Below are positions 5,035 through 38,501 of a stretch of DNA of 64,000 nucleotides, in pieces. The position numbers were made by a program, and so were the translations under genes. The notes below the pieces were generated by a model. It was given only the letters and a program-made list of their open reading frames with translations, did not search any database and had not been told where the DNA came from. Position 1 is the stretch's first letter. Each line of letters opens with the position of its first letter. This stretch comes from Escherichia coli (lineage in GTDB: Bacteria > Pseudomonadota > Gammaproteobacteria > Enterobacterales > Enterobacteriaceae). Where the stretch lies: NCBI RefSeq assembly GCF_044324875.1, contig NZ_CP172185.1; one strand, 5' to 3'.

Positions 5035-5315
5035 GGGTTAATTCCCTTTGGTAAGATTTTTTCGACATCGGTATGTGGGCGGGGAATAACGTGCACGGCT
5101 TTTACTTCGCCGACGTTACGCGCAGCTGCGGCACCTGCGTCTGTTGCCGCTTTTACCGCCCCGACATCACCACGAACGATGACGGTCACCAGCCCGGAAC
5201 CTATTTTTTCGTAGCCGACCAGCAAAACATTTGCCGACTTCACCATGGCGTCTGCGGCCTCTATGGCGGCAGTTAAGCCTTTGGTTTCTACCATTCCTAA
5301 CGCTTCTTGTTGCAT
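5031..5315 (-). CDS. pduA: Microcompartment shell protein PduA
   Basis: 94 aa [33 protein letters not shown]..., near-identical to the PduA I remember; first gene of the pdu operon. Confidence 0.9.
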
Positions 5316-5826: not shown

Positions 5827-6636
5827 ATGAATGATTCACTCAAGGCGCAATGCGTTGCCGAGTTTTTGGGCACCGGACTGTTCCTCTTTTTTGGCATTGG
5901 TTGTTTGTGCGCCCTGAAACTTGCCGGGGCAAGTCTGGGACTGTGGGAAATTTGTATCATTTGGGGGTTAGGGATTTCGCTTGCTGTTTACCTTACGGCA
6001 GGTATTTCCGGCGCTCATCTCAACCCGGCAGTTACCATTGCTCTGTGGCTGTTTGCCTCTTTCCCAGCCCGTAAAGTGCTGCCATTTTGTGTGGTGCAAT
6101 TAGCGGGTGCCTTTGGTGGTGCGGTTCTGGCATATTTTCTCTACAGCAGTTTGTTTACCGATTTTGAATCTGCTCACAATATGGTGCGTGGTAGTGCAGA
6201 AAGTTTACAACTCGCCAGTATCTTCAGTACTTATCCGGCAGCGGCGATTAATGTATGGCAAGCTGCGTTGGTCGAAGTGGTCATAACGTCCATGTTAATG
6301 GGGTTGATTATGGCGTTGACCGATGACGGTAATGGCGTACCCAAAGGACCGCTTGCGCCTTTACTTATTGGTATTCTGGTTGCTGTTATTGGTGCTTCTA
6401 CCGGACCATTAACCGGTTTTGCCATGAATCCAGCGCGTGATTTTGGACCTAAAATTTTCACCTGGCTTGCGGGTTGGGGGGAAATTGCGATGACTGGTGG
6501 ACGCAATATTCCTTATTTCATTGTACCCATTATTGCACCGATCATTGGCGCATGTGTTGGTGCGGCGATTTATCGCTATCTCATTGCAAAGAATTTACCT
6601 GTCAATAGTGTTACACCTAAAGAAATCAGCGAATAA
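5827..6636 (+). CDS. pduF: Propanediol diffusion facilitator (MIP/aquaporin family)
   Basis: ORF track frame 5788..6636; likely start at internal MNDSLKAQC... preceded by an AAGGTG ribosome-binding site; multiple transmembrane segments and MIP-type NPA motifs (NPAVT, NPARD). Confidence 0.85.
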   Translation: MNDSLKAQCVAEFLGTGLFLFFGIGCLCALKLAGASLGLWEICIIWGLGISLAVYLTAGISGAHLNPAVTIALWLFASFPARKVLPFCVVQLAGAFGGAVLAYFLYSSLFTDFESAHNMVRGSAESLQLASIFSTYPAAAINVWQAALVEVVITSMLMGLIMALTDDGNGVPKGPLAPLLIGILVAVIGASTGPLTGFAMNPARDFGPKIFTWLAGWGEIAMTGGRNIPYFIVPIIAPIIGACVGAAIYRYLIAKNLPVNSVTPKEISE

Positions 6637-6838
6637 CGAAATAATCTGGCAGCTATAAACGTTTATTTTTTTACTGTTTGTGATCTGCTTTCCGAACTTA
6701 TTAAAAAGTCTCCCGCTTCACGGAGGCTTTTGTTATTGTCCTTTGTGCTTCTCGTCAGTAAATCATCAGGGATGATGTGAAGATTAAATGTAAAACAATT
6801 GTTTTGCTATAACAATAAATTAACTGGGAGGTTTTATC

Positions 6839-7753
6839 ATGATTTCTGCGGCGACACTTAATTCAGAACTCATTAATAAAATCGCGCAGGATTTTGCGCA
6901 GGCGACCAGCCTTGCGGTTGTCGTGGTCAATATTCACGGCGATGAAATTTCCGAGCTGTTTAACTTCACTCCATTTTGTCAGATGATGCGGCAACACTCT
7001 CAGCTTAGCACTCGATGTCGCATGAGCGATCGTTGTGGGGGCCTGGAAGCCTCTAAATCCGATCAGCCTTGTATTTATCGCTGTCATGCCGGATTAACCG
7101 ATTTCTCTATTCCACTGGTAATCGCCGGACATTTAGTTGGTTTTGTATTGTGCGGGCAAGTTCGTCTGCGTAATGATGATGTCGATTTGGTCGATATTCT
7201 GAATGTCGATGATTGCTGGCAGGCAGATCCCGAATTACTTAATGAATTTCGCAAAGTCCCTGAGATGGATTACTCAAGAGTTATGGCCTCTGCTGATTTG
7301 TTGAAGTTGATTGTGGAAAATTGCCTCAAAAAACAACTCAATTTTGTTGTTATTAAAGAGAACAAATTTCAGTCAGATTCGGTGCGCCAGACTCGTGCGC
7401 CTAATCCCCACGACAATAAAATGAAAAAAGCTTTACGCTATATTGATGCGCATTTATCAGACGATTTGCGTCTGGAAGATGTCGCCTCGCACGTTTATCT
7501 AAGCCCTTATTATTTCAGCAAGTTATTTAAGAAATACCATGGGATTGGGTTTAATGCGTGGGTAAACCAACAACGGATGGCCAGCGCTCGTGAGTTACTG
7601 TGCCATAGTGACTGGAGCATCGCCAGCATTGCGCGTAATTTAGGTTTTTCGCAAACCAGTTATTTTTGCAAAGTTTTCCGTCAGACTTATCAGGTTACGC
7701 CGCAGGTGTATCGGCAGCAAGTGAATGAAAATGCGGCGATGGAAACGGTATAG
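6839..7753 (+). CDS. pocR: AraC-family regulator of pdu/cob
   Basis: 304 aa ORF with a C-terminal AraC-type HTH domain (…YLSPYYFSKLFKKYHGIGFNAW…); position between pduF and the cob leader. Confidence 0.85.
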   Translation: MISAATLNSELINKIAQDFAQATSLAVVVVNIHGDEISELFNFTPFCQMMRQHSQLSTRCRMSDRCGGLEASKSDQPCIYRCHAGLTDFSIPLVIAGHLVGFVLCGQVRLRNDDVDLVDILNVDDCWQADPELLNEFRKVPEMDYSRVMASADLLKLIVENCLKKQLNFVVIKENKFQSDSVRQTRAPNPHDNKMKKALRYIDAHLSDDLRLEDVASHVYLSPYYFSKLFKKYHGIGFNAWVNQQRMASARELLCHSDWSIASIARNLGFSQTSYFCKVFRQTYQVTPQVYRQQVNENAAMETV

Positions 7754-7859
7754 AGTAAATGCCAAAAAAAAGGAAGGTTTAAATAAACGCTGGAATGAAT
7801 AATTAACGTTATTTACGTGTTATGGGAAAAGTGAAATCAGCTCATAACATACGCTGACA

Positions 7860-8060
7860 GGTGTGGCACATTTGTGCCAGGGAAGAGGGTGAAAATCCCT
7901 CGCAGCCCCCGCTGCTGTAATGCTGACAAACCCGAAAATGCCACTGATCGCGAGATTGGGAAGGTCGGGTGAGGATGACGCTAAGCCAGAAGACCAGTCT
8001 GTCAGTCAATACCAACAACTTCGGTGGGAAGTGGGTTGCCCGGAAGCGTCCGGTAGAGTA
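7860..8060 (+). ncRNA. Cobalamin (B12) riboswitch-like leader
   Basis: Contains GTGCCAGGGAAGAGGGTGAAAATCCC, GCAGCCCCCGCTGCTGTAA, GCCACTG and a B12-box-like AAGCCAGAAGACCAGTC, all resembling conserved cobalamin-riboswitch segments as in the btuB and cob leaders. Confidence 0.7.
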
Positions 8061-8235
8061 CTGGCGCGTCTTTATACCCCTACCACCCTGAAAGGATCAG
8101 GGTATGGCGGCATCATTTAGTTCTTTCATCGCAGTGCCAACAGGCACCAGAGCTGCACTTAAGGTGTGGCAATCTTGTTTCATGGCTCATCAACCAGACC
8201 GCCATTACAGGAAACTAAGTGGAGGGCGAGGGACA

Positions 8236-8672
8236 TGAAAACGATAAGACCCGAATCGATAGCTCTTTTTTGCCTCTTATCTGGAGATGCGGACCTGGCG
8301 AAACAATTGGCTGAAATATTGCCAATAACTTGTTTTGTTGGTGAGGACTGGCAGCAAGATTTCCAGCCTCTTGACGGTGGGCCTGTGCAATCGTTATCAG
8401 ATGTGTATGGCGATTATTCAGTGCTGCTATTGATAGCAGCTGAAAGCGAGATATCCGTACCAGAATGGCTCGCTCATTCTGAAGGAACGACGGTAATTGT
8501 GATTGCAGAACACAATGCCCGTTTGCTGACTGGTCCGGCTGGTGGGGCTGTAGCATTGATCCATTATCTGAATGAAATCTGTCATTCCAGAGAAACCGCT
8601 GTCAATGACGCATTTTGTCGTACGTTAACACGAGGAAGTCTGGCTATTCCGCAATGCCATCTTCTTTCGTAA
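8236..8672 (+). CDS. Hypothetical protein downstream of the B12 riboswitch (possible remnant of a deleted cbi region)
   Basis: ORF track frame 8166..8672; internal ATG (MKTIRPES...) preceded by GGAGGG; no family recognised. Confidence 0.3.
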
Positions 8673-8805
8673 TGGATTGAGAATGCTGGATTTTTAATTA
8701 TATTACGCGCAGTATTAATCGCGTAAATGTTTTGCGGTCAGCAACGGTGGGGGATCCATTGTTCTGTTCAATGAATACCATCATACAAATGAATCAGGAG
8801 TCGGT

Positions 8806-12200: not shown

Positions 12201-12230
12201 AAAAAGCCTGCTAGAAAGCAGGCTTTTTTG
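12201..12230. terminator. Intrinsic terminator hairpin between ldtA and tRNA-Asn
   Basis: AAAAAGCCTGC-TAGAAA-GCAGGCTTTTTT: perfect stem flanked by an A-run and a T-run, so it could act in both directions. Confidence 0.6.
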
Positions 12231-12234
12231 AATT

Positions 12235-12310
12235 TGGCTCCTCTGACTGGACTCGAACCAGTGACATACGGATTAACAGTCCGCCGTTCTACCGACTGAA
12301 CTACAGAGGA
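12235..12310 (-). tRNA. asnV: tRNA-Asn (anticodon GUU)
   Basis: Reverse complement reads TCCTCTGTAGTTCAGTCGGTAGAACGGCGGACTGTTAATCCG...GGTTCGAGTCCAGTCAGAGGAGCCA, the E. coli tRNA-Asn sequence; gene name assigned by position. Confidence 0.95.
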
Positions 12311-12635
12311 ATCGTGTGAACGGGGCGCATATTAATGGCAGTGCATGGTGATGTCAAAGGGTGAAATGCATTTTTTTGTTTGTTTGCTGTCAATTTCAAC
12401 AAAGTGGTGAGCTTTCAATCTTATTGGTAATGAACCATCGTGGTGCATACCCTCCTTTTATGGGGCAGGGGAACGCGACAGCTGATAAAAAGAGCCAATG
12501 ACGAACCTATCATAATCTCTTATTTGACAGTTGGTTAGCTTGTACATCAACGCCAAAATAAAACTGGCAAGCATCTTGCAATCTGGTTGTAAGTAATGGC
12601 GGCACTTGGGCCGATTCTTATAAACCGGAGGCAAC

Positions 12636-13553
12636 ATGAACTTCAGACGCCTGAAATACTTCGTAAAAATTGTAGATATTGGTAGCCTGACCCAGGCTGC
12701 TGAAGTATTGCATATCGCACAACCAGCGCTCAGTCAGCAGGTTGCCACACTGGAAGGTGAGTTAAATCAACAGCTTTTGATTCGCACAAAACGGGGCGTT
12801 ACGCCAACTGACGCCGGAAAAATTCTCTATACCCATGCGCGGGCCATTTTACGTCAGTGTGAGCAGGCCCAACTGGCGGTGCATAACGTTGGTCAGGCAT
12901 TATCGGGGCAAGTCTCGATTGGCTTTGCGCCAGGAACCGCTGCGTCATCCATCACCATGCCCTTATTACAGGCGGTTCGCGCTGAATTCCCGGAGGTCGT
13001 TATCTATCTTCATGAAAATAGCGGTGCAGTGCTTAACGAAAAACTGATAAATCACCAACTCGATATGGCGGTGATTTATGAGCATTCCCCTGTGGCTGGT
13101 GTATCCAGTCAGGCTTTACTGAAAGAAGATCTTTTTCTGGTAGGAACTCAAGATTGCCCGGGGCAAAGCGTTGATGTTAATGCTATTGCGCAAATGAACC
13201 TCTTTCTCCCCAGTGATTACAGTGCTATTAGACTTCGTGTTGATGAGGCTTTTTCCCTACGGCGACTCACGGCAAAAGTCATTGGTGAAATTGAGTCTAT
13301 TGCCACGCTTACCGCAGCGATTGCCAGCGGCATGGGCGTTGCAGTATTACCCGAATCGGCCGCGCGTTCGTTATGTGGCGCAGTAAATGGGTGGATGTCA
13401 CGCATTACCACTCCTTCCATGAGTCTCTCTTTGTCATTAAATTTACCCGCCAGAGCGAACTTATCGCCACAGGCACAGGCAGTGAAAGAGTTGTTAATGT
13501 CAGTGATGAGTTCTCCAGTGATGGAAAAAAGGCAGTGGCAATTGGTGAGCTAA
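12636..13553 (+). CDS. nac: LysR-family nitrogen assimilation control protein
   Basis: 305 aa ORF with N-terminal LysR HTH (MNFRRLKYFVKIVDIGSLTQAAEVLHIAQPALSQQV...). Confidence 0.9.
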   Translation: MNFRRLKYFVKIVDIGSLTQAAEVLHIAQPALSQQVATLEGELNQQLLIRTKRGVTPTDAGKILYTHARAILRQCEQAQLAVHNVGQALSGQVSIGFAPGTAASSITMPLLQAVRAEFPEVVIYLHENSGAVLNEKLINHQLDMAVIYEHSPVAGVSSQALLKEDLFLVGTQDCPGQSVDVNAIAQMNLFLPSDYSAIRLRVDEAFSLRRLTAKVIGEIESIATLTAAIASGMGVAVLPESAARSLCGAVNGWMSRITTPSMSLSLSLNLPARANLSPQAQAVKELLMSVMSSPVMEKRQWQLVS

Positions 13554-13654
13554 GCGTTATATCGGGATGGAATAAGATGCGGGTTTTTATTATTTGTTAT
13601 GCCGGGCATTAGACTTTAACAATAACGGGATATCTGAACTGCCCGGAGTTTACC

Positions 13655-14605
13655 GTGAATTTCCAACAACTAAAGATAATCCGCGAGGCTGCACGTCAGG
13701 ATTACAACCTGACAGAGGTTGCGAATATGCTTTTTACCTCACAGTCAGGCGTCAGCCGTCACATTCGGGAACTGGAGGATGAACTTGGCATCGAAATATT
13801 TGTTCGACGAGGTAAGCGACTGCTGGGCATGACTGAACCGGGCAAAGCATTACTGGTCATTGCAGAACGCATTCTTAATGAAGCCAGTAATGTTCGTCGG
13901 CTTGCAGACCTGTTTACCAACGATACGTCTGGCGTTCTCACTATTGCAACGACGCATACTCAGGCACGTTATAGCTTGCCTGAGGTCATTAAAGCTTTTC
14001 GCGAACTTTTCCCGGAGGTTCGGCTGGAGCTAATCCAGGGTACGCCACAGGAAATTGCGACGTTGTTGCAAAATGGCGAAGCTGATATTGGTATCGCCAG
14101 CGAGCGTTTGAGTAATGACCCGCAGCTCGTCGCCTTCCCGTGGTTTCGTTGGCACCATAGTTTGCTTGTTCCACTCGATCATCCCTTGACGCAAATTACA
14201 CCGTTGACGCTGGAATCAATAGTGAAGTGGCCGTTAATCACTTACCGACAGGGGATTACGGGGCGCTCACGTATTGATGACGCATTTGCCCGCAAAGGTT
14301 TGCTGGCAGATATTGTATTAAGTGCGCAGGATTCTGATGTCATTAAAACCTATGTTGCTCTTGGGCTGGGGATTGGATTAGTTGCCGAACAATCCAGCGG
14401 CGAACAAGAGGAAGAGAATTTAATCCGTCTGGATACGCGGCATCTTTTCGATGCCAATACTGTATGGTTGGGACTGAAGCGAGGGCAACTTCAACGTAAC
14501 TATGTCTGGCGCTTTCTGGAACTTTGTAATGCAGGACTGTCAGTTGAGGATATCAAGCGCCAGGTGATGGAGAACAGTGAAGAGGAAATTGATTATCAGA
14601 TATAG
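13655..14605 (+). CDS. cbl: LysR-family regulator Cbl
   Basis: 316 aa ORF MNFQQLKIIREAARQDYNLTEVANMLFTSQSGVSRHIRELE...; CysB-like, adjacent to nac as in E. coli. Confidence 0.9.
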   Translation: MNFQQLKIIREAARQDYNLTEVANMLFTSQSGVSRHIRELEDELGIEIFVRRGKRLLGMTEPGKALLVIAERILNEASNVRRLADLFTNDTSGVLTIATTHTQARYSLPEVIKAFRELFPEVRLELIQGTPQEIATLLQNGEADIGIASERLSNDPQLVAFPWFRWHHSLLVPLDHPLTQITPLTLESIVKWPLITYRQGITGRSRIDDAFARKGLLADIVLSAQDSDVIKTYVALGLGIGLVAEQSSGEQEEENLIRLDTRHLFDANTVWLGLKRGQLQRNYVWRFLELCNAGLSVEDIKRQVMENSEEEIDYQI

Positions 14606-14606
14606 C

Positions 14607-14634
14607 AAAAAGCCCGCTATAAAAGCGGGCTTTT
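14607..14634. terminator. Intrinsic terminator hairpin after cbl
   Basis: AAAAAGCCCGC-TATAAA-GCGGGCTTTT immediately after the cbl stop. Confidence 0.6.
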
Positions 14635-14642
14635 CAGAAATT

Positions 14643-14718
14643 TGGCTCCTCTGACTGGACTCGAACCAGTGACATACGGATTAACAGTCCGCCGTTCTAC
14701 CGACTGAACTACAGAGGA
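14643..14718 (-). tRNA. asnU: tRNA-Asn (anticodon GUU)
   Basis: Same 76-nt tRNA-Asn sequence on the minus strand. Confidence 0.95.
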
Positions 14719-14878
14719 ATCGCTGTTGAGGCACATCTTAACGGCGAAAAATCTTTTGTCAAACCCGATTTTTAAATTTCCCAACTGTTTGCCGTTTCTA
14801 TCAACAGTTTGTTGCATTTGCAGACAATTTGTTGGCGAAAATCTTTGCAGCTTTGCTGATTCTCCCTCATTATTTGAA

Positions 14879-16366
14879 ATGTGGTTTCACTTTCTGCAAT
14901 TAAGGTCGGCTTTGAATATCTCCTCTGCTTTACGCCAGGTTGTTCACGGCACTCGCTGGCACGCCAAACGCAAGAGTTACAAAGTGTTGTTCTGGCGCGA
15001 GATAACCCCGCTTGCTGTTCCTATCTTCATGGAGAACGCCTGTGTCCTGTTGATGGGTGTCCTGAGCACTTTTCTGGTCAGCTGGCTGGGAAAAGATGCG
15101 ATGGCCGGCGTGGGATTGGCGGACAGCTTCAATATGGTCATTATGGCATTTTTTGCGGCTATCGATCTTGGTACCACTGTCGTTGTGGCATTTAGTCTCG
15201 GTAAGCGGGATCGACGACGAGCGAGGGTGGCGACGCGGCAGTCATTGGTGATCATGACGTTGTTTGCCGTGCTGTTGGCAACGCTTATTCATCATTTTGG
15301 CGAACAAATTATTGATTTCGTTGCGGGTGATGCCACGACAGAAGTTAAAGCACTGGCGTTGACTTATCTGGAGCTGACGGTACTCAGTTATCCAGCAGCT
15401 GCCATCACTTTGATTGGTAGTGGTGCACTTCGTGGTGCAGGGAATACGAAAATACCGCTACTGATTAACGGTAGCCTGAATATTCTTAATATTATTATTA
15501 GCGGCATATTGATTTACGGCCTTTTCTCCTGGCCGGGACTGGGATTTGTCGGGGCTGGGTTGGGTTTAACCATTTCTCGTTATATTGGCGCAGTGGCAAT
15601 TTTGTGGGTGCTGGCGATTGGTTTTAATCCTGCGCTAAGGATTTCGTTAAAGAGCTATTTTAAACCGCTGAATTTTAGCATTATCTGGGAAGTCATGGGG
15701 ATTGGTATTCCAGCAAGTGTCGAATCAGTATTATTTACCAGTGGTCGGTTATTAACCCAAATGTTCGTTGCCGGGATGGGGACCAGTGTTATTGCCGGAA
15801 ATTTTATCGCGTTTTCAATTGCGGCTCTTATCAACTTACCCGGAAGTGCGCTCGGCTCTGCTTCTACGATCATTACAGGCCGAAGGTTGGGAGTAGGGCA
15901 GATAGCGCAAGCAGAGATTCAGTTGCGGCATGTGTTCTGGCTGTCCACTCTTGGATTAACGGCCATCGCCTGGCTAACGGCTCCCTTTGCCGGGGTTATG
16001 GCATCGTTTTACACCCAGGATCCACAGGTTAAACATGTCGTTGTGATTCTGATTTGGCTAAATGCTTTATTTATGCCTATTTGGTCTGCCTCATGGGTGC
16101 TACCCGCTGGATTTAAGGGTGCTCGCGATGCACGTTACGCCATGTGGGTTTCTATGTTGAGCATGTGGGGTTGCCGGGTTGTAGTCGGTTATGTGCTGGG
16201 AATCATGCTTGGCTGGGGTGTGGTTGGTGTCTGGATGGGAATGTTTGCCGACTGGGCTGTGCGGGCCGTGCTGTTTTACTGGCGAATGGTTACTGGACGT
16301 TGGCTGTGGAAATATCCTCGACCTGAGCCGCAAAAGTGTGAAAAAAAGCCAGTTGTGTCGGAATAA
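14879..16366 (+). CDS. yeeO: MATE-family efflux transporter
   Basis: ORF track frame 14726..16366; start moved to an internal Met to give the roughly 495 aa I recall for YeeO; many transmembrane segments. Confidence 0.85.
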   Translation: MWFHFLQLRSALNISSALRQVVHGTRWHAKRKSYKVLFWREITPLAVPIFMENACVLLMGVLSTFLVSWLGKDAMAGVGLADSFNMVIMAFFAAIDLGTTVVVAFSLGKRDRRRARVATRQSLVIMTLFAVLLATLIHHFGEQIIDFVAGDATTEVKALALTYLELTVLSYPAAAITLIGSGALRGAGNTKIPLLINGSLNILNIIISGILIYGLFSWPGLGFVGAGLGLTISRYIGAVAILWVLAIGFNPALRISLKSYFKPLNFSIIWEVMGIGIPASVESVLFTSGRLLTQMFVAGMGTSVIAGNFIAFSIAALINLPGSALGSASTIITGRRLGVGQIAQAEIQLRHVFWLSTLGLTAIAWLTAPFAGVMASFYTQDPQVKHVVVILIWLNALFMPIWSASWVLPAGFKGARDARYAMWVSMLSMWGCRVVVGYVLGIMLGWGVVGVWMGMFADWAVRAVLFYWRMVTGRWLWKYPRPEPQKCEKKPVVSE

Positions 16367-16466
16367 ACGACAAAGTGCAGATTATTTCAGCAAACGATTT
16401 CAAATTTAAAAAACAGGCTTTGACATTGTGGATGAGCGTCGCTAATATTCGCCTCGTTCTCACGAT

Positions 16467-16542
16467 TCCTCTGTAGTTCAGTCGGTAGAACGGCGGACTG
16501 TTAATCCGTATGTCACTGGTTCGAGTCCAGTCAGAGGAGCCA
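16467..16542 (+). tRNA. asnW: tRNA-Asn (anticodon GUU)
   Basis: Plus-strand TCCTCTGTAGTTCAGTCGGTAGAACGGCGGACTGTTAATCCGTATGTCACTGGTTCGAGTCCAGTCAGAGGAGCCA. Confidence 0.95.
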
Positions 16543-16603
16543 AATTTTAGTTTTGAGACATCTCTATGAGTCTCAAGACAGTTAAAAAATAAAAATTATT
16601 TTT

Positions 16604-16638
16604 ACCCGGTTACCTTGTAAAAAGTGACCGGGTTTTTT
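16604..16638 (+). terminator. Intrinsic terminator after asnW
   Basis: ACCCGGTTACCTTGTAAAAAGTGACCGGGTTTTTT: hairpin plus T-run. Confidence 0.55.
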
Positions 16639-16996
16639 GATTTCTGTGTTTCGTGCGCTTAATCGAGTCTCACGCTTCAGTGAGCAAATTGCCCCTCCCC
16701 AACAGACATCACGATTCGCAAGGTCAAAAACTCTGTTCCATGAAGTACCGTACAAAGACAAAGAGAAAAATGCCTTATGCGGGATGTCGCTATCGCGTCT
16801 TTATCGGGAAACTATGCGTAATTGCCACTTTGCCTTCTGTAATCAGAAAAAGAAGAACTGGAATTTTAATAAATATTATTTCTCTGGGAATGGGGGGTTT
16901 TTATAAGCAATATGACGAGTTGAATATTATATTTTTTATAAGGATTATATGAGATTAAAGAAATCTGCCATAAAGACAGATTTCTTTAAAATATAA

Positions 16997-17713
16997 TTAG
17001 AGATTTGCGACGTTATGATAAACTTTTTGAACATCGTCGTCATCTTCAAGGGCATCAACAAGCCCTTCAAAGATTTCTAAATCTTCTGGGGAAAGCTCAA
17101 CTTCAGATTGAGCAATCATTTCTAATTCTGTTGTTGAGAACTCAGTGATTCCAGCTGCTTTTAGAGCCGCGATTCCTTTATGAAGGTCAGTAGGTTCAGT
17201 ATAAATAACAATATTACCTTCTTCTTCAGTTACATCACGAACATCAACTTCAGCTTCAAGTAAAATTTCAAAAATATGGTCAGGGTCTGTTCCTTTAAAT
17301 ACAATCACACCCGTATTGTCAAACATATAGCTGACAGAGCCTGCCGCTCCGATATTGCCGCCTTTTTTATTGAAAATTGTGCGAACGTTAGCAATCGTAC
17401 GGTTAACATTTGAAGTCAATGTCTCAGCGATAATCATTGAGCCATTAGGACCAAAGCCTTCATAACGGCCCTGCACGAACGTTTCATCTCCGCCGCCTTT
17501 GGCTTTATCAATTGCTTTATCAATAACGTGCTTTGGAACTTGTGCCTGCTTTGCTCGTTCAATAACGAATTTTAAAGATGTGTTTAATTCTGGATCGGGT
17601 TCACCTTGTTTGGCAGCGGCATAGATTTCTACACCGAATTTTGCATAAATTTTAGACGTCGCACCGTCTTTAGCCGTTTTTTTAGCAACAATATTGGCCC
17701 ATTTACGTCCCAC
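16997..17713 (-). CDS. yeeN: YebC/PmpR-family transcriptional regulator
   Basis: 238 aa [30 protein letters not shown]..., the conserved YebC-family N-terminus. Confidence 0.9.
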
Positions 17714-18054
17714 TGGAATGATCTCCTCGAAAATTTATTTACATTACTGGTAAATCGTTAACATGTGTTAATTCGGCATATTATATCATAACAGGAAAAA
17801 TCTCGTCTATTAGAAATAAAAATATTCTAAAGCCATAATATTATATTTAATCTCATAAAAACTAATGTTGTTGGCGGGATTTTTTATAATTGTGTTTTGA
17901 AAGCATACTTGCTTATAATATGTGGAAATCATTAAGGCTATAATAAAACTCGTATCCGCCCCAGGAAGCAAACAGCCTGCTTTATTGCAGGCTATTTGCT
18001 GGATGACTTACTAAATCCTTCACATCTATTCCTGATAAAAAGGAACAGAACTTA

Positions 18055-19509
18055 TTACCGGAACGGCGGCTCATTAAATGTTCGTAATTTACGTGAATGC
18101 AGTCGGTCGCCTTCTGCGCGCAGCAAATCGATCGCCCGAATGCCAATTTGCAGGTGTTCGGAAATAGCGCCTTCATAAAAACGGTTAGCCTGACCGGGAA
18201 GTTTAATCTCACCATGCAACGGTTTATCTGAAACACACAGTAGTGTCCCGTATGGCACGCGGAAACGATATCCTTGCGCGGCAATGGTTGCACTTTCCAT
18301 ATCAATTGCTACGGCCCGGCTTAAGTTAAAACGAAGTGCAGAAGCTGAGTAACGTAATTCCCAGTTCCTGTCATCTGTGGTTACCACAGTGCCAGTACGT
18401 AGCCGCTGTTTAACTTCCTCACCGGGCCTGCCGCTGACTAACTTGGTAGCGTCATAAAGCGCACGTTGCACTTCAGCAATGCTCGGAATAGGAATATCGG
18501 GCGGCAGTACCGCATCAAGAACGTGGTCATCGCGTAAATAAGCGTGTGCAAGTACATAATCTCCAATGGCCTGGCTTTCACGTAAGCCACCACAGTGACC
18601 AATCATCAACCAGACATCCGGGCGTAGCACCGCCAGATGATCGCAGATGGTTTTAGCATTTGACGGTCCCACGCCAATATTCACCAGAGTAATACCCTGA
18701 CCATCGGCGGTAATTAAATGCCATGCTGGCATCTGGTGTTTTTTCCATGCAAGGTCGGAAATGGCTTCTTCTGGCGCTTCGGTTTCGGCGGTGATCCAGT
18801 TCCCGCCAGCACAAGAAAGGGCAATGTAGGGACTATCAGGGTCGAGGATCTGGCTGCATCCCCAACGAACGAATTCATCCACATAACGTGTGTAGTTGGT
18901 AAACAAGACGAACGGCTGAAAATGTTCAACTGGCGTACCGGTATAATGGCGCAACCGCGCGAGGGAAAAATCGACGCGGCGCGCATCAAAATGCGATAGC
19001 GGGGAGAATTCAGTTGGATGATAAATGCCGTCTGCAGTTTCATCGCCAATTTGCGCCAGTTCTGTTGTCGGGAAATAGCGAGTTAACCCAGCGCTCATTG
19101 AGCGATCAAGTGTCAATTCAGAGCCATCGATGACATAAGGATAAGGGATTTCATGCTGCGAGGGTTGCACCGAGATATGCGCACCATAATCCTGATACAG
19201 CAACGTAAGTTGTTCATTGAGATACGAACGAAAGAGAGTAGGGCGAGTAATCGTGGTGGTGTAGCTGCCTGCGTGGGTAAAACGACCAAATGCGCGCGTT
19301 TTGGGGGGATTGGTTGTGCTACCGTCCCAGGTTACGGTCAGTGATGGATAGACAAAAAGACCTTGTTTGCGGGCGTTTTCATCAGGTAATTCGCCACTTG
19401 TAATATATTTGCCAATGGCGTTGCGTAATGCGACTACAGATTGCTCATACAGCGCGTCGAGTTTATCCAGTGCCTGAGCTGGGGTCAGACCGGAGCCCTT
19501 ATTATTCAT
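18055..19509 (-). CDS. amn: AMP nucleosidase
   Basis: ORF track frame 18055..19614; start moved to internal MNNKGSGLTPAQALDKL... giving 484 aa as I recall for Amn. Confidence 0.9.
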   Translation of the reverse strand: MNNKGSGLTPAQALDKLDALYEQSVVALRNAIGKYITSGELPDENARKQGLFVYPSLTVTWDGSTTNPPKTRAFGRFTHAGSYTTTITRPTLFRSYLNEQLTLLYQDYGAHISVQPSQHEIPYPYVIDGSELTLDRSMSAGLTRYFPTTELAQIGDETADGIYHPTEFSPLSHFDARRVDFSLARLRHYTGTPVEHFQPFVLFTNYTRYVDEFVRWGCSQILDPDSPYIALSCAGGNWITAETEAPEEAISDLAWKKHQMPAWHLITADGQGITLVNIGVGPSNAKTICDHLAVLRPDVWLMIGHCGGLRESQAIGDYVLAHAYLRDDHVLDAVLPPDIPIPSIAEVQRALYDATKLVSGRPGEEVKQRLRTGTVVTTDDRNWELRYSASALRFNLSRAVAIDMESATIAAQGYRFRVPYGTLLCVSDKPLHGEIKLPGQANRFYEGAISEHLQIGIRAIDLLRAEGDRLHSRKLRTFNEPPFR

Positions 19510-19610
19510 GTGTGTCTCCTGTTCCATACAATTACCGCACATCCGATAGTATGTCACAGAAATGTGAAACAAAAGTGTAAGGCGAAGATCGGATGATCTT
19601 CGCCAGACTA

Positions 19611-20927
19611 TCAAGCGCGTAGATTATCTTTCATCAACAAAGCGGTCATTGCGGAAATCAGGCATCCAGCCAGCAAATAAATGGCGACGCTATGCCAGTT
19701 CCCGGCAAAGTAAGTGATGAGTGCAGCGGCAATAAAAGGTGTAAATCCACCGCCAACCACACTGGCAACCTGATAACCGACTCCTGCACCACTATAGCGA
19801 TAACTGGCACCAAACATTTCGGTAAACATCGGTTGTTGCACACACACCACCATGTCATGCGCAATGTTTGCCAGCATTATGGAGAAGAAAACTATCCAGA
19901 AAATAGATTGTGTTTCAAGCGCCATAAAGAAAGGAAATGCGCTCAACGTTCCGATTAACGCGCCTGTGATATAAACCCTGCGGCGACCAAAACGATCGGC
20001 AAGCCAGGCAAAACAGGGAATGGTCAGGCAGCTTAATCCACCTACCAGCAAACCAATATTAAGGAAAAGTTCGCGCGGTAACCCCATATTCTGGGTTGAA
20101 TAATTAAGTGCGAAGGCGGTAACGATGTACATCGTCAGCAACTCGCACAGTCGTAGCGCAATAATCTTCAGGAAAGCACCGGGATGTCGTAATAGTGCTT
20201 CGATAACCGGAATGCGTTTTTTCGCGGCCGCTTGATTATGTTGCTGTTGTTCGAATTCCGCGGACTCCTCCATGCCATTACGCACCCACAATGCTCCCAG
20301 TACCAGTACGATGCTAAACAGGAAAGGAATGCGCCAGCCCCAGCTTAAAAACTGTTCGTCAGTCGTCATCATACTGATCAATGAAACCAGTCCAGTTGAA
20401 AGCAGTAAACCTACACCGTAGCCAACTTGTACACCGCTACTGTAAAAGGCTTTTTTATTTTTCGGTGCACTTTCAACGGAAAGTAACGCTGCGCCTCCCC
20501 ATTCGCCGCCGACGGCAAATCCCTGTATGGCACGCAGCGTCACCAGTAAAATGGGGGCCCACCACCCAATGGTCGAGAAGGAAGGAAGAATACCAATCAA
20601 GGCTGTCGCGATGCCCATCATCCAGACGGTCAGCATTAACATGCGCTTACGTCCCAGCCGGTCGCCAAAGTGACCGAAAATGACACCGCCGAGCGGACGG
20701 AAAAGGAATCCGACGCCAAAGGTGGCAAATGCGGCGAGCGTTCCCATAGCCGGGCTTACTTGCGGGAAAAACTCGCGATTAAACACCAGTGCGGCGGTAA
20801 TGCCATAGAGTAAAAAATCATACCAGTCGACGACGGCACCAGCGAAACTGCCTAACGCAGCTCGTCGGGCGCGACTTAACGAAAGCGTCCCTTCATCGGG
20901 ACGAGTGGAGATGAGCGTGGAGTCCAT
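19611..20927 (-). CDS. shiA: Shikimate transporter (MFS)
   Basis: 438 aa ORF with 12 predicted transmembrane segments; size and sequence match ShiA. Confidence 0.9.
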   Translation of the reverse strand: MDSTLISTRPDEGTLSLSRARRAALGSFAGAVVDWYDFLLYGITAALVFNREFFPQVSPAMGTLAAFATFGVGFLFRPLGGVIFGHFGDRLGRKRMLMLTVWMMGIATALIGILPSFSTIGWWAPILLVTLRAIQGFAVGGEWGGAALLSVESAPKNKKAFYSSGVQVGYGVGLLLSTGLVSLISMMTTDEQFLSWGWRIPFLFSIVLVLGALWVRNGMEESAEFEQQQHNQAAAKKRIPVIEALLRHPGAFLKIIALRLCELLTMYIVTAFALNYSTQNMGLPRELFLNIGLLVGGLSCLTIPCFAWLADRFGRRRVYITGALIGTLSAFPFFMALETQSIFWIVFFSIMLANIAHDMVVCVQQPMFTEMFGASYRYSGAGVGYQVASVVGGGFTPFIAAALITYFAGNWHSVAIYLLAGCLISAMTALLMKDNLRA

Positions 20928-21241
20928 AATGATCCTGTTTGTACTGTCTTTTTATAATTAGTATGGAAAAGGTAACTCACATTGCCGTCGATCTATAAAC
21001 GAACCTTATGAGACTACCTCGACAGAGCGCATCTGCAAATGATTTTATGGCTGATTAACGGCAACATGAAAAATTCGCTGGAAGATGAAAGTACAGGAGT
21101 TGCTGGTGTTGTTTAAGGATTAAGCAGAGCACCCACAGGTTCGAGATATGAAACATAAAAGTCCGCATATGCACAAAATGGCACCCTGATGAGTCTGATA
21201 GACTGCATTGCATTATAACCAGTAGGGAGGCGAGGTTAATT

Positions 21242-22294
21242 ATGTTTTTAGCATCATTGTTGAGACGTATTGCATTTAGTTACTACGATTATAAAGCTAA
21301 TAATTTCAATATTGGAAAAACAGAGTTTGTTGTCATCCATATTCCCGATCAAATTGGCGATGCTATGGCCATCTTTCCAGTTATTCGGGCGCTTGAACTG
21401 CATAAAATTAAGCATCTTTTAATTGTTACTTCGACTATTAATTTAGAAGTCTTTAATGCGCTCAAACTTGAACAGACTAAATTAACATTAGTCACAATGA
21501 CTATGCAGGATCACGCAACATTAAAAGAAATAAAAGATTTAGCGAAGAACATAACACAGCAATACGGTACGCCGGATCTTTGTATAGAGGCGATGCGTAA
21601 AAAGAACCTGAAAACAATGTTATTTATCAGTCAGTTGAAAGCAAAAACGAATTTTCAGGTTGTCGGTTTAACCATGAAGTGCTATTCCCCTTTGTGTAAG
21701 ACTGCGTCCCGGATGGATCAGAATCTCCGGGCTCCCGTACCCATGACATGGGCATTTATGATGCGTGAGGCGGGTTTTCCAGCAGTCAGGCCAATATATG
21801 AATTGCCATTAAGCGAGGATGCACTCGATGAGGTGCGCGAGGAAATGCGATCGTTAGGATCTTACATTGCGCTTAATTTAGAAGGTAGCTCGCAGGAGCG
21901 TACATTTTCATTATCGATTGCAGAAAATCTAATAGCAAAAATTCAAAGTGAAACAGATATACCAATAGTGATCGTTCATGGACCCAAAGGGGAAGATAAA
22001 GCCAGGGAACTAGTGAATAGTTATAATAATGTCTACCGTTTATCCTTGTCACCCTCGATTAAACGTTCAGCAGCAATCATAAAAGATGCTTATATCGCAA
22101 TAACACCTGACACCTCAATATTACATATGGCAAGTGCCTATAATACCCCCGTTGTTGCAATTTATGCTGATTACAAAACGCGATGGCCCGCAATGGCCGA
22201 TGTCTCGGAGTCAGTCGTCGTTGGGCAAAAAATTGACAATATAAGTCTGGATGAATTCGCAAAGGCATTAAAAAGTGTTTTGGCGAGAATATGA
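21242..22294 (+). CDS. yeeL: Glycosyltransferase family 9 (heptosyltransferase-like) protein, intact
   Basis: 350 aa uninterrupted ORF between shiA and yeeJ, at the position of the yeeL pseudogene of K-12 (from memory). Confidence 0.7.
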   Translation: MFLASLLRRIAFSYYDYKANNFNIGKTEFVVIHIPDQIGDAMAIFPVIRALELHKIKHLLIVTSTINLEVFNALKLEQTKLTLVTMTMQDHATLKEIKDLAKNITQQYGTPDLCIEAMRKKNLKTMLFISQLKAKTNFQVVGLTMKCYSPLCKTASRMDQNLRAPVPMTWAFMMREAGFPAVRPIYELPLSEDALDEVREEMRSLGSYIALNLEGSSQERTFSLSIAENLIAKIQSETDIPIVIVHGPKGEDKARELVNSYNNVYRLSLSPSIKRSAAIIKDAYIAITPDTSILHMASAYNTPVVAIYADYKTRWPAMADVSESVVVGQKIDNISLDEFAKALKSVLARI

Positions 22295-22873
22295 GGCAGT
22301 ATTTATGCATATTAATGCCGATCTGTTATGAACGGTGGTGTCATCAATACTCTGTGGCTGGTCAATCATTACAGAAAGCCAGTCTTTGGAGCAAAGCTGT
22401 ACTCACCGGATACGATCATAGTCACATCGAACGCGATTCTGGCGGAACCAAAACATTGTAATGTATTTCACCATCATAAATAAGGCAATCTAAACTTTAA
22501 CTCCCGTTAACTGCCATACATTATTATGAGTGGCGCTGATGTAATTTGTAATAGTGAAATATGAATTAATGTTGTTTGTACGTCCTAACATATCTTCCTT
22601 CTTGATGTAATTAGCTAAACATTAACGTGATTTGACTACATAGCAACAATGGTAGCTATCAAAAATAGCTCATGTACTTCGTTTCCTGCTGGCATGGAAC
22701 AGGTGGTTATATCGTGTGTGAAAGCTTTTATAAAAAGTAAGGAGGCTCGACTATCTTTAAACTAACAGGGGGTATGGGAAAATGCAGGTATATTAATGGA
22801 GCGTTTGACAGCAAACGAATATAAAAGCAGAGCGCCCCGAATGGAGCACTCTGTAAGAAAATATAGCGAAAAA

Positions 22874-31489
<8,616 letters not shown>

Positions 31490-31801
31490 GCTTACCTTCC
31501 CTGAACGAGCTAACATAAATGCGCCCTTTCTAGCACAGCGAAAAAAAGTAAATCCTGATAGCAATATGATTGAAAATTAATAACTTTTCGTTAAGCAGTT
31601 TTGGGTGTGAGTTGCAAGGGGGAGACTACTGAATTACTCAAGTTTTATAATCGAGGGGAAAATGGTGATGGCGTCCATAGCAAAACGCCCTCAACCATTA
31701 AGGTCGAGGGCGCTTAAGATGTCAAAAACCCGCTATCCGTTAAAAAGCAATGCTCAACTAAGGTCAGTGACATTGGGCTAAAAAAGCGAATTTTTAGAAT
31801 T

Positions 31802-31877
31802 TGGCTCCTCTGACTGGACTCGAACCAGTGACATACGGATTAACAGTCCGCCGTTCTACCGACTGAACTACAGAGGA
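31802..31877 (-). tRNA. asnT: tRNA-Asn (anticodon GUU)
   Basis: Fourth copy of the identical 76-nt tRNA-Asn sequence, minus strand. Confidence 0.95.
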
Positions 31878-31977
31878 ATCGTGTGAACGGGGCGCATATT
31901 ACTTAGCGGTACCTTGTCTGTCAACACTAAATTTCATAAGTCATTTCAATTGGTTAATTAATCTGCAAAGTTGTTAA

Positions 31978-32867: not shown

Positions 32868-32957
32868 CGGAGAGATGCCGGAGCGGCTGAACGGACCGGT
32901 CTCGAAAACCGGAGTGGGGGCAACTCCACCGGGGGTTCAAATCCCCCTCTCTCCGCC
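32868..32957 (+). tRNA. serU: tRNA-Ser (anticodon CGA)
   Basis: GGAGAGATGCCGGAGCGGCTGAACGGACCGGTCTCGAAAACCGGAGTGGGGGCAACTCCACCGGGGGTTCAAATCCCCCTCTCTCCGCCA: long-variable-arm class II tRNA with anticodon CGA. Confidence 0.9.
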
Positions 32958-33002
32958 AAAATTCAATCACTTATACATCATTAAGTCAGTGACAAAAATC
33001 AC

Positions 33003-33038
33003 ACTTGGAATTACTTGGAATATTTTCTTGGAATATTT
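33003..33038. repeat. Three direct CTTGGAAT repeats next to the attachment site (candidate integrase arm-type sites)
   Basis: CTTGGAAT at about 33003, 33013 and 33026, with GGAATATTTT occurring twice; lies between the tRNA-Ser 3' end and the integrase 3' end. Confidence 0.35.
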
Positions 33039-34036
33039 TCAGGTAACGGGACATCAAGTGTTGGTGAAACTTTAACCTTCCGGTCATAGATTAGCACTTG
33101 CCCTTCGGTTTTGTGACCAGAGAAAAGTTGCTTATCCCGGCTGCTTCCTTCATAGTCTGAAATTCCTTTCGCCTTCAGATCATGAAAGGTGAAGTCGGTT
33201 AAAATACCTGAAACTTTGCCTGCGCGATTTCTTGCTTCTACCCACATTTCGTTAAAGCCTTTGTACATATATCGGTTGCCGTATTGATTGCTGATCACAT
33301 AGGCGGATTTTGGTAACTGTTTTGCTTTTTCGACCGCTGCCTGTAATCGTGGACTCCATGCTTTTATCTGTTTTTTCCCTGTTTTCCCTTGCTGGATAAA
33401 GATCCCGTCGTTTCCAATCTGCTCCCATTTCAGCGATAACACATCGGAAACCCTCGCTGCACACAGATAGGCAATTTCCATTGCGATAAAAACAGGAAGG
33501 GGTGCCACGCTTAATACTGCCTGGTATTCTTTGTCGGTTACATATCGTTCGCGGTTTTTGGCCTTGAATTTACTTACTCCTGCACATGGGTTAGCCTTCA
33601 CGTACCCTCGCTCATACCCCCAACTGTAAACACGGGACATACTGCTTTTTTCATGGTTGGCTTGCGTTTTACTCTGTTCCCCTCTTTTGTCCATGTATCG
33701 ACGGATGTGTTCTGGTTTTATGGAATCCGCTGGTACCTTACCGAATACGGCAAGCAACTTTTTTTGATGTTGCAGATAATCTTTTTGTGTTCTTGGACTA
33801 AGGTCACTGTAACAGGCGCTGGCGAGGAATTTTTCCCACAAGCGACCGAATGTCATTGCACGATCGCGATTATTTACAGTTTCCTCATACTTTTTCCATA
33901 AAGCAGCTAAACCATCCTTGATGGCGGTTAGTGTTACAGATTCTCTGGATGTTGGTTTCCATACATAACTATATTTATTTGGGTATACATTTGGAGGTAA
34001 TTTTTCGTGTTCAGGATTTTTCCTTCGTCTTCCCAT
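33011..34036 (-). CDS. int: Tyrosine recombinase (phage integrase)
   Basis: 341 aa ORF adjacent to the tRNA and reading toward it; C-terminal region has tyrosine-recombinase-like R...HxxR...Y spacing (…FTFHDLKAKGISDYEGS…HKTEGQVLIYDRK…). Confidence 0.85.
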   Translation of the reverse strand: MGRRRKNPEHEKLPPNVYPNKYSYVWKPTSRESVTLTAIKDGLAALWKKYEETVNNRDRAMTFGRLWEKFLASACYSDLSPRTQKDYLQHQKKLLAVFGKVPADSIKPEHIRRYMDKRGEQSKTQANHEKSSMSRVYSWGYERGYVKANPCAGVSKFKAKNRERYVTDKEYQAVLSVAPLPVFIAMEIAYLCAARVSDVLSLKWEQIGNDGIFIQQGKTGKKQIKAWSPRLQAAVEKAKQLPKSAYVISNQYGNRYMYKGFNEMWVEARNRAGKVSGILTDFTFHDLKAKGISDYEGSSRDKQLFSGHKTEGQVLIYDRKVKVSPTLDVPLPENIPRKYSK

Positions 34037-34297: not shown

Positions 34298-36751
34298 TTA
34301 AAAATCAGCCTGATTCGGGATCAGTTTTTGTATAGTGGCTGTTACGTATTTTGCCTGGTGAAGAGCGTCATCCAGAGCATTATGGCGCACGCCTTCGAAT
34401 GGAATTACGCTTCTGGCATTGAAGTCTGTGATTTTCCCCATCTCAACGATTGTGCGTACATCACGATCGTTGCTGTAATGCCACGGACAGGGGATGTCCA
34501 GACGTTCGTATGAGGTGCGCAAAATTGCGTTATCGAACGTTGCGCCATTACCCCACACCTGAACGAATTTTTCATCAGAGTGTTCATTGACGAATTGCCG
34601 AAAACGCAAAAGGGCATCTTTCATTTTTACCTGGTCAGTTAAAATGGCAGCTCTGGCTTCGCTGGACTGCTTCAGCCACCATTCGATGGTGCCACCATCA
34701 GGAACAGCCCCTGTATTCATTGCGTCAGTCAGGCTGATAACGATATAAAATACCGGCCCGATTTCCCCTGTTTCCGGGTCGAAGAAAACCGCACCAATAA
34801 CTACTATGGGTGCATTGGTGTTGGCTCCCATTGTTTCAAGGTCGACTGACAGGTGATTCCATACTCTGCTGGTGGATGTGATTTCACGATGACCGTTCAT
34901 CTTAATTAAGGAATTTTCTGTTTCGCCAGTTTTATTATCGCTGGCGTGGCCCTGAGCGCCGCCAGTGTTCTCCTTGTGCGGATGCTCAGTGCCTTCCGTT
35001 TCCTCCGGATTTTTTTCCTGAGATTCAGCCTGATTTTCTCCATTGAATGTTTCCTGGTATGTTGCGTCACCCATTACTGAGCCACAATCAGGGCAGTTGC
35101 CGCCGCTGGTCTGACCGCAGGCGGTGCAGACTTTTTCCGGTTCCTGTTGCGCTACTGGCTCAGGTTGTTTCGTTTCTGGCTCGTTTTGTAACGCATTTTG
35201 GCTGTTTTGTTCCGCTTTCTGGTCGTTCTGTTCCGTTTCTTGCTGGTTCTGGTTCACTGAATCGCGAGTCTGGACTCCCTTAACCCATTTCAGATCATTC
35301 GGGTCGCTAATCCCTTCAACGAACTCACCACGCGAGGCCGCCAGTAATTTGTCTGCATCGACAGGATTTTTGGGCGGAATGTTTTTCCTAGCTTCATGGA
35401 GTTCTGCCCGCAGTTTCTGATATTTCGCATCAACAGAATTCACCTGCGGCTGAGCATCCAGCGGCTGCGTGTCCGGATGATGTTCAGTTGTATCCGGTTC
35501 CACTGTTTCAGTCGTTGGCTGTTCATCTGCCATTGCGCCAGACGGTTGCGGTTTTTCTTCATCATCCTGTTTTCCTTCTTCTGTTACACGCTGCGGCATT
35601 GGGGCAGAGGAACGACCGCAGGCAATATCCACGATTTCCGGATCAGGGTTGGCATGATCGGTTTCGGTCAGCACTTTATTCAAGTATTCGGTGACGCGCT
35701 GGGGCATAGCCTCTATACCAACCGGTGCTTCTTTCACGGAGGCAACCACGATGGCGCGGGAATAATCCATCCCGCCTGGCATGTTCAGAAAAGCCTTAAG
35801 GAAGACGGAGAAACAGGGATCATTTTCTGCGATAATTTCGTTAACACGTCTGGTATGTGAAGGATGCATGTTGTAAATATCCACATCCATCGAACGAGCC
35901 AGTTTTCCTGTAGCAACATCGAATGCCATTGACGCATTATCATGCACAAAACCTTCGCCGCGATCGGTAAGAATACCGCCGCCAGCGTTAGCGCCGGATG
36001 GTGTGCGACTGATGCGAGAAACACGATTTCCTTTCATCCACTCTTTTGTAAGCAGACCACGATCAGTGTAGTCAGCGTCCAGGTATGCTTCGATGAAGGA
36101 GGTCATCAGTCCCAGGTCTGAATTTACGGGGGCGGGAAAAACTTTGTCAGTGTCCCGCACCAGTTTGTACAAATCCCGAATCTCCAGCGGTTCGAGTTGC
36201 GCTGCTTTATTTGAGATGGCCAGCGCGGTAACGGCGGGAAGTTTTTCTTCCTGTGCGTTATGTAATGAGCGCAGTTCATCCCGCGAAACGTGCGTTACTG
36301 GTTTTTCGCCGCCGTGTTGCGCCAGCCAGCGAACAGGCAGAATCTGACCTGAAACCGGCAGAAGCATATTCTCCTCAATCTCAGTCATGTCTTCGCCATT
36401 AACATTGGTGTTGTCAGTGCTGGCTGGTTTGTCCTGCGCGGATGGCGGAGGCGCGATAAATATCATTGTGATGCCATCTTCGCCGCCTTTTTCATACCGG
36501 TTACAGAATTCGGTATCAAACACGCCTTCCGGTGGAAGGTCATCAACAACGGGCAAATGGACGCGAACAGGTTTTTTAAAGTCGTCTTCATCATAATCGT
36601 TATCATCCATTGCGGTAATGCAGCGGGAGATGGCAACAGATAATTTTTTTGCTGTAGTCCAGTAAAAACCACCTTTAATCCCAAGGCGTTTTCTGACTTT
36701 GTCATTTTTAGCTTCGCAATATAGCGCAAAAGTTTCTTTATCAGTGCTCAT
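34298..36751 (-). CDS. Large early protein with internal Cys4 zinc-ribbon and C-terminal DnaQ-like (DEDDh) 3'-5' exonuclease domain
   Basis: 817 aa; CTACGQ...CPDCG motif; C-terminus has DLETMG ... HNALDDA spacing like DEDDh exonucleases; occupies the recE-like position but I do not see a RecE/lambda-Exo type nuclease motif. Confidence 0.55.
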
Positions 36752-37692: not shown

Positions 37693-37861
37693 AATGGCAG
37701 CCTCCACGTTGAGTATTGATAACTCACCACCGAGGCTTTCCACGACCATAATGGTGGTGAGACGTACAGGGGTGGAAATACCGGTCAACGTAGAACCCGG
37801 CCAGCCTTGCGGCTGCCCTGCACGCCCCACCATAATCTGAATGTGGCTGTGCTTCACGCAT

Positions 37862-37886
37862 AAAAAAACCGCCTGAGCGCGGTTGT
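37862..37886 (-). terminator. Intrinsic terminator on the minus strand upstream of rha
   Basis: Minus strand reads AACCGCGCTCAGGCGGTT followed by a U-run (plus strand TAAAAAAACCGCCTGAGCGCGGTT). Confidence 0.45.
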
Positions 37887-38501
37887 GCGCTACGTTTGAC
37901 TTCGGGTTTCCACGCCCGGCACCCGGTTTATGAGGTGCAGGTGCACTATAATTCCACCCGTACTGGTTTTCAATAGCTACATTCAACATTTTCTCTTACC
38001 TTTCATCACCGAAGTGAACTTTGTTGATGCGGTGCCAGGTGCCTCCAGGTGACGTTAACCAGTTAACAATTAACGCCGGATACAGAGAATCCACCCATAA
38101 CTCTGTTTTTGGTTTTAACTGTTCCACGTGCGATCAGCCGCATTCACCACATCACAAAATTCACTTTAAAAAGGGCGGCAGAGCAGTCACGGAGTAAAAC
38201 TGATACCGCAAAACGTCACCAGAAAATTGATAACAGATGGCGTTGCAGCGGGGTTGTCACTCAGGCGCATGGTCAACCTGACAACCCGGTGTCCTCAAGG
38301 GGAAGGGAACCCCGCCATGCTTACCGCCGCGCCATTTCGCGGAGTGCCACAACCGGAAGCGGACGGTCGACGAAAATTTAACGACAGGCTATATATGAAC
38401 CAGCTACCTCGCCGTGCGCTTTCGTGTTGTGTGCCTGCTTTTAACCACGTCAGGCGAGGTGGTATCCTCTGAGGGGTCTGTTACCCGAGAGGAAATTGGT
38501 T

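Follow-up and report, generated by a model that had tools for sequence, protein, structure and literature searches.

Four identical tRNA-Asn genes in the K-12 layout in an Escherichia coli chromosomal region, and rearrangements bounded by these genes in other E. coli genomes

Identity and arrangement of the tRNA-Asn genes

The window, which is the whole stretch of 64,000 nt of E. coli DNA that was analysed, contains four tRNA-Asn genes of identical sequence. The locus has the layout of the K-12 reference and shows none of the rearrangements or insertions described below for other E. coli genomes. Taken as a whole, the data are best explained if the four genes are the tRNA-Asn(GUU) genes asnV, asnU, asnW and asnT of the chromosome, and this assignment is made with high confidence. 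ARAGORN detected five tRNA genes in the window, four for tRNA-Asn(GTT) and one for tRNA-Ser(CGA) (serU, 32869-32958, + strand). The four Asn copies were also recognized by Rfam, and their names were assigned by synteny with K-12:

12235..12310, - strand: asnV, tRNA-Asn(GTT) copy 1, between ldtA and nac
14643..14718, - strand: asnU, tRNA-Asn(GTT) copy 2, between cbl and yeeO
16467..16542, + strand: asnW, tRNA-Asn(GTT) copy 3, between yeeO and yeeN
31802..31877, - strand: asnT, tRNA-Asn(GTT) copy 4, between yeeJ and mtfA

Each copy reached 72.6 bits with the Rfam model RF00005, which has a gathering score of 29, and carried the anticodon GTT at position 34-36 according to ARAGORN. Only asnW was located on the + strand, and the distance spanned from asnV to asnT was 19,643 nt. 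The initial annotation, which had reported four identical tRNA-Asn genes on strands -, -, + and - within about 20 kb, was thus confirmed by ARAGORN and Rfam. The 76-nt sequences of asnV, asnU, asnW and asnT, including the encoded CCA end, were 100% identical; four exact 76-mers could not arise by chance. The same tRNA-Asn sequence was present in every E. coli locus fetched, including that of K-12. The junction searches in 5,426 complete E. coli genomes gave a median of 4 tRNA-Asn matches per genome, which is in keeping with a tRNA-Asn complement made up of just these four genes, as in K-12.

From their identity to the K-12 genes and from the promoter matches, the four genes are predicted to be transcribed and their products to be charged with asparagine. 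The four copies together would supply the sole asparagine isoacceptor. Strong purifying selection acting on the tRNA would keep them identical, and gene conversion between the copies probably contributes to this. The GC skew on the + strand was +0.06 for the whole window, suggesting that asnW is co-directional with replication while asnV, asnU and asnT are oriented head-on.

Predicted transcription units and extent of the repeats

Upstream of each copy, and at an equal distance from it, a promoter match consisting of TTGACA, a spacer of 16-17 nt and TAATAT was found. The matches agreed with the consensus at 10 of 12 positions, and the -10 hexamer of asnU reads TAAGAT. When the upstream regions were aligned, the -35 and -10 hexamers, a G+C-rich stretch past the -10 hexamer and the sequence CGAT before the mature 5' end were common to all four. 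Hairpins with a run of T residues followed all four copies, directly in the case of asnV and asnU and at a distance of about 60 nt from asnW and about 90 nt from asnT. The promoter-like sites were obtained by scan and alignment, the hairpin of asnV by scan and folding, and the other hairpins by folding:

12329..12357, - strand: asnV promoter-like site, TTGACA-17-TAATAT, followed by the G+C-rich GCGCCCC
14735..14762, - strand: asnU promoter-like site, TTGACA-16-TAAGAT
16420..16448, + strand: asnW promoter-like site, TTGACA-17-TAATAT
31896..31924, - strand: asnT promoter-like site, TTGACA-17-TAATAT, followed by GCGCCCC
12201..12228, - strand: asnV intrinsic terminator hairpin and T-run
14607..14634, - strand: asnU terminator-like hairpin and T-run
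16604..16638, + strand: asnW terminator-like hairpin and T-run
31682..31713, - strand: asnT candidate terminator, G+C-rich hairpin and T-run

On the basis of the sigma-70-type consensus matches and the hairpins, every copy appears to form a single-gene transcription unit of its own.

Exact identity continued past the tRNA ends for only 4-6 nt, except in the pair asnV and asnT, in which the 24 nt immediately upstream of the tRNA were identical. The similarity extending beyond the 76 nt was due to partly alike promoter-proximal flanks, and the following repeats were obtained when flanks were included:

asnU/asnW: inverted, 85 nt, 100% identity
asnV/asnW: inverted, 104 nt, 97% identity
asnW/asnT: inverted, 107 nt, 96% identity
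asnV/asnT: direct, 125 nt, 94% identity

Past 85-125 nt the flanks were unrelated, and over the 100 nt downstream of the copies the ungapped identity was near the random level.

Comparison with K-12 and related genomes

From the layout of open reading frames and homologous annotation, the order in the window was cobUST-ldtA-asnV-nac-cbl-asnU-yeeO-asnW-yeeN-amn-shiA-GT9-yeeJ-asnT-mtfA-serU. The intervals between the tRNA genes contained the following genes, again identified from open reading frames and annotation:

12636..14605, + strand: nac and cbl, LysR-type regulators, in the asnV-asnU interval (copies in direct orientation)
14879..16366, + strand: yeeO, MATE efflux transporter, in the asnU-asnW interval (copies in inverted orientation)
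16997..31564, no single strand assigned: yeeN, amn, shiA, a glycosyltransferase-9 gene (GT9) and yeeJ, in the 15-kb asnW-asnT interval

The four-gene asn cluster belongs to the standard annotation of K-12. The K-12 asnT-asnW-asnU-asnV locus at about 2.04-2.06 Mb resembled the window in its genes, neighbours and relative orientations, and the exact matches showed the same pattern in K-12 as in the window, asnW alone lying on the strand opposite to that of the other three copies. The spacing of asnV, asnU and asnW was also as in K-12, whereas the distance between asnW and asnT was 15.3 kb in the window and 13.5 kb in K-12, because yeeJ is longer in the window. Two further differences lay outside the cluster: the pdu genes and pocR upstream of cobUST and the prophage beyond serU were both present in the window, while K-12 has neither.

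The gene order and tRNA orientations of the K-12-derived strain KLY were those of the window, and the best complete-genome match also had this layout according to its annotation. Two draft assemblies, found through an exact protein look-up, matched positions 11242-32294 with 100% identity, and a third differed from this region by one base. In the 100%-identical draft assemblies the layout was as in the window over 21 kb. These genomes bear out the earlier statement that a known E. coli arrangement is intact here; the locus of the window is the textbook E. coli architecture in its already known reference layout. No complete RefSeq E. coli genome with more than 99.1% identity over the 8.3-kb core was found.

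A 24-kb query taken from the window was collinear with E. coli chromosomes. It was discarded as a test for rearrangements, as inversions, island insertions and the variability of yeeJ were indistinguishable with it, and synthetic junction queries were used instead. Most of the broken matches of the 24-kb query were attributed to the longer, repeat-bearing yeeJ.

Census of recombinant junctions

Each junction query comprised 676 nt and combined the promoter side of one copy, the tRNA and the downstream region of another copy. Complete E. coli genomes (n = 5,426) that contained the whole query in one piece were counted; an unrearranged genome covers just about 56% of a hybrid query. The following numbers were obtained:

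Native asnV-asnU-asnW block, 8.3 kb including flanks of 2 kb: 4,261/5,426 (78.5%)
Native asnT junction: 2,674/5,426 (49%)
asnV promoter and asnW downstream (asnV/asnW inversion): 265/5,426 (4.9%)
asnW promoter and asnV downstream (reciprocal of the asnV/asnW inversion): 1/5,426, strain SE15
asnW promoter and asnU downstream (asnU/asnW inversion, yeeO flipped): 32/5,426
asnU promoter and asnW downstream (reciprocal of the asnU/asnW inversion): 34/5,426
asnT promoter and asnW downstream (15-kb asnW/asnT inversion): 1/5,426, strain ET5
asnW promoter and asnT downstream (reciprocal of the asnW/asnT inversion): 0/5,426
asnU promoter and asnV downstream: 35/5,426
asnT promoter and asnV downstream (asnV-asnT deletion junction): 0/5,426

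Inversions bounded by tRNA-Asn copies are genuine natural polymorphisms, and assembly errors are an unlikely source of recombinant junctions for repeats of 76-107 nt in complete assemblies. The expectation that inverted copies permit inversion of the intervening segment was borne out at the level of the population by the 265 asnV/asnW genomes, the 32 and 34 genomes with the two asnU/asnW junctions and the single asnW/asnT genome. A comparison of gene order across E. coli had been suggested as a check; it showed the order to be variable, with the native asnV-asnU-asnW block retained in 4,261 of the 5,426 genomes and recombinant junctions present. The inverted segments had sizes of 1.8, 4.3 and 15 kb. 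A flip of yeeO alone occurred in about 0.6% of the 5,426 genomes, and 264 of the 265 asnV/asnW-inverted genomes had no clean reciprocal junction. The census provides rough natural rearrangement frequencies at repeats of 76 nt.

Matches covering 77% of the query with the asnT promoter and the asnW downstream region were considered as old inversions. They were rejected because they came from islands whose leader between tRNA and integrase resembles the sequence 3' of asnW.

Layouts of individual rearranged genomes

The annotated layout of E. coli Nissle 1917 was clbS-integrase-tRNA-yeeO-tRNA-cbl-nac-tRNA-yeeN. The pks island adjoins the copy with the asnW promoter, and this order corresponds to the asnV/asnW inversion. 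An inverted 4,309-bp asnW-asnU-asnV region has been described for pks-positive strains of phylogroup B2 (PMC8209727, PMC8461471); it is bounded by the same repeats, whereas the window is non-inverted and of the K-12 type. In strain KL53 two inversions were combined, and an island was present at the reciprocal side of the asnV/asnW inversion. Strain SE15 (NC_013654.1, 1.967-1.986 Mb) was asnV/asnW-inverted with the clean reciprocal junction, and an island was absent. Beside asnW it contained a second copy of yeeO, which was partial and frameshifted. A clean reciprocal inversion was therefore rejected for SE15, whose layout implies that a segment was duplicated in inverted orientation.

In strain LD27-1 yeeO alone was flipped, and the locus contained no island. 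The matches for the yeeO flip fell into at least five identity classes or flank haplotypes, which suggests, but does not prove, that this flip had several origins. The order mtfA-tRNA-yeeN-amn-shiA-GT9-yeeJ-island in strain ET5 corresponds to the 15-kb asnW/asnT inversion.

Strain CREC-544 (NZ_CP024826.1, 1.943-2.036 Mb), one of the 35 genomes with the asnU promoter and the asnV downstream region, had the order ldtA-tRNA-yeeO. The nac-cbl genes were present at a distance of about 47 kb, flanked by an island integrase with a tRNA-Asn gene and by a type VI secretion island. Relative to the window, they have left the asnV-asnU interval and lie on the side of asnT. The asn sites of this strain were taken by three separate islands. 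Exchange between direct copies thus resulted in translocation and not in deletion in CREC-544, the sole genome inspected of the 35.

The initial annotation had also claimed that direct copies permit deletion, and this was only weakly borne out. Of the 35 genomes with the asnU/asnV junction, the inspected one represents a translocation rather than a loss, and the asnV-asnT deletion junction did not occur in any of the 5,426 genomes. An interpretation of the 35 genomes as nac-cbl deletions was rejected, as nac-cbl was present in 5,418 of the 5,426 genomes and CREC-544 (1 of 35 inspected) has a relocated copy. Judged from the asnV-asnT junction query and from the inspection of 1 of the 35 genomes, simple deletions between direct copies are at most rare.

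No description of the flip of yeeO only, the asnW/asnT inversion or the relocation of nac-cbl was found in a non-exhaustive literature search. These three are minor variations on a known theme. As a tentative suggestion, which we regard as somewhat doubtful, the asn cluster would be a minor hub at which rearrangements other than the published asnV/asnW inversion recur. If flips were frequent, cultures of strains such as that of the window could be mixtures of different orientations.

Origin of the rearrangements

The exact repeats of 76 nt (85-125 nt with flanks) are substrates for homologous recombination, which is a well-known side effect of their identity. Such recombination gives inversions between asnW and any other copy, while exchange between direct copies can lead to translocation or deletion. 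Because the crossovers fall inside identical sequence, the DNA does not reveal which enzyme made the natural inversions; both recombination of the RecA type and the action of an island integrase on a pair of attachment sites are candidates. The yeeO flip is most simply explained by homologous recombination between the perfect inverted repeats of 85 nt, because both junctions were clean and similar in number and because LD27-1 was free of an island. Inversions are also known to arise from rRNA operons or IS copies in opposite orientation, an example being the rrnD/rrnE inversion in W3110. As in the asn case, these are due to recombination between dispersed identical inverted genes; what sets the asn case apart is the shortness of its repeats (76-107 nt) and of the inverted segments (1.8, 4.3 and 15 kb).

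Two routes could have led to the asnV/asnW inversion: an integrase may have used two attachment sites, or a single homologous event may have been carried along by hitch-hiking in successful pks-positive clones. In Nissle 1917 and in KL53, the two genomes inspected, the inversion junction was abutted by an island carrying a P4-type integrase, which makes the integrase route plausible for this inversion. An inversion of the asnV/asnW region has also been proposed to accompany the acquisition of pks (PMC8209727).

It is possible, but on balance unlikely, that the rearrangements were generated by P4-type integrases of islands acting on tRNA 3' ends and not by general homologous recombination. Such an origin would suit the 265 genomes with the asnV/asnW inversion, for which a clean reciprocal junction was found once, the integrase-carrying islands of Nissle 1917 and KL53, the proposed connection with pks (PMC8209727) and the translocated nac-cbl of CREC-544, which is flanked by integrase-bearing islands. 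It does not suit the asnU/asnW inversion, both junctions of which were clean (32 and 34 genomes), nor the island-free locus of LD27-1, although integrases may be encoded elsewhere in these genomes.

A programmed invertible switch like fimS or Hin/Gin, which would flip yeeO or nac-cbl-yeeO to control their expression, is very improbable. Natural inversions whose ends coincide exactly with the tRNA copies do recur, but a recombinase gene is absent in and beside the invertible segments, whose open reading frames in the window are nac, cbl and yeeO. The promoter outside the repeat travels with a full tRNA copy, and inversion alters no connection between promoter and gene. Moreover, the inverted states are rare: the flip of yeeO alone accounts for 0.6% of the genomes and the asnV/asnW inversion for 4.9%. 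There is equally little to recommend a recent segmental duplication in place of long-standing separate genes: the copies are 100% identical and their promoter regions partly alike (asnV and asnT share 24 nt, and the -35/-10 hexamers align), but the flanks are unrelated past 85-125 nt, the intervals hold different genes, the same four-copy layout occurs across E. coli, and Klebsiella pneumoniae has a comparable cluster of four tRNA-Asn genes within 16.4 kb, which are integration sites for ICEKp (PMC6202445).

Attachment sites for genomic islands

The asn genes are the landing sites of the yersiniabactin (HPI) and colibactin (pks) islands. Insertion of pks occurs at asnW, asnU or asnV, and that of HPI at asnT (PMC8209727, PMC8461471). 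The 3' ends of the tRNA-Asn genes are well known as attachment sites for the P4-type integrases of HPI, of the colibactin (pks) island and of integrative conjugative elements. The attachment genes of this asn-tRNA hot spot (HPI at asnT, pks, ICEEc1/ICEKp, Klebsiella) are those present in the window, whereas the island, the integrase and the direct repeat of the tRNA 3' end are missing at all four sites of the window. Among the open reading frames of the window, no integrase was found beside any of the four asn copies; the genes located 3' of asnV, asnU, asnW and asnT were ldtA, cbl, yeeN and yeeJ, respectively. A search across the 64 kb for additional copies of the tRNA 3' end (14-24 nt, at most 1 mismatch) gave none. 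With neither integrase nor border repeat, the four asn sites in the window are empty and contain no tRNA-linked island. This empty K-12-type cluster means that the strain from which the window derives carries neither HPI nor pks at the usual site.

Annotation placed islands with a P4-type integrase immediately 3' of asn genes in the strains Nissle 1917, KL53, CREC-544 and STW0522-31. A stretch of 147 nt just 3' of asnW in the window (16543-16689, + strand) was homologous to the leader between tRNA and integrase of such islands. Identity was 79% over 152 nt to the island leader of STW0522-31 (E 1.5e-31) and 76% to that of CREC-544 (E 5e-25). The whole asnW-yeeN spacer of 454 nt, which contains this stretch, was 97% identical to K-12. 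From these similarities, the 147-nt stretch is read as the putative scar of an old island that is common to most E. coli and of which no integrase gene is left.

Other features of the window

A lambdoid prophage (33011-64000) started 52 nt past serU and ran off the end of the window. The following prophage genes were assigned:

33011-34036, - strand: integrase
34298-36751, - strand: exonuclease
41317-42387: replication initiator
52422-54179: large terminase
54327-55553: portal
56163-57380: major head protein
60401-63646: tape measure

At the position of the prophage, K-12 has yodB directly after serU, and strain 10035776-3 has an IS-disrupted integrase. Two regions inside the prophage, 37750-38224 (- strand) and 45283-45457 (+ strand), gave Rfam matches to C4 antisense RNA (78.6 bits), isrK (67.1 bits), DicF (67.3 bits) and sok antitoxin RNA (114.9 bits).

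At the other end, positions 1-8800 contained pdu-type open reading frames, a pduF-like open reading frame and pocR (6839-7753). An STnc230 sRNA match was located at 6695-6778 (- strand). A cobalamin riboswitch (7842-8016, 104.7 bits) was followed by a short open reading frame (8166-8672) and then by cobU-cobS-cobT. A long cbi gene block is expected after such a riboswitch, but was missing between it and cobU-cobS-cobT in the window. The layout of pdu, pocR, riboswitch and cob genes in CREC-544 was as in the window, and K-12 has IS5 and a cobalamin pseudogene at this position.

The yeeJ gene (22874-31564, - strand) encodes an inverse autotransporter adhesin of 2,871-2,896 amino acids; the K-12 gene is shorter, with 7,077 nt. 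Within yeeJ, tandem repeats were present at 26547-28064, consisting of three units of 609 nt with 93-94% identity and Big_1/Invasin_D3 domains.
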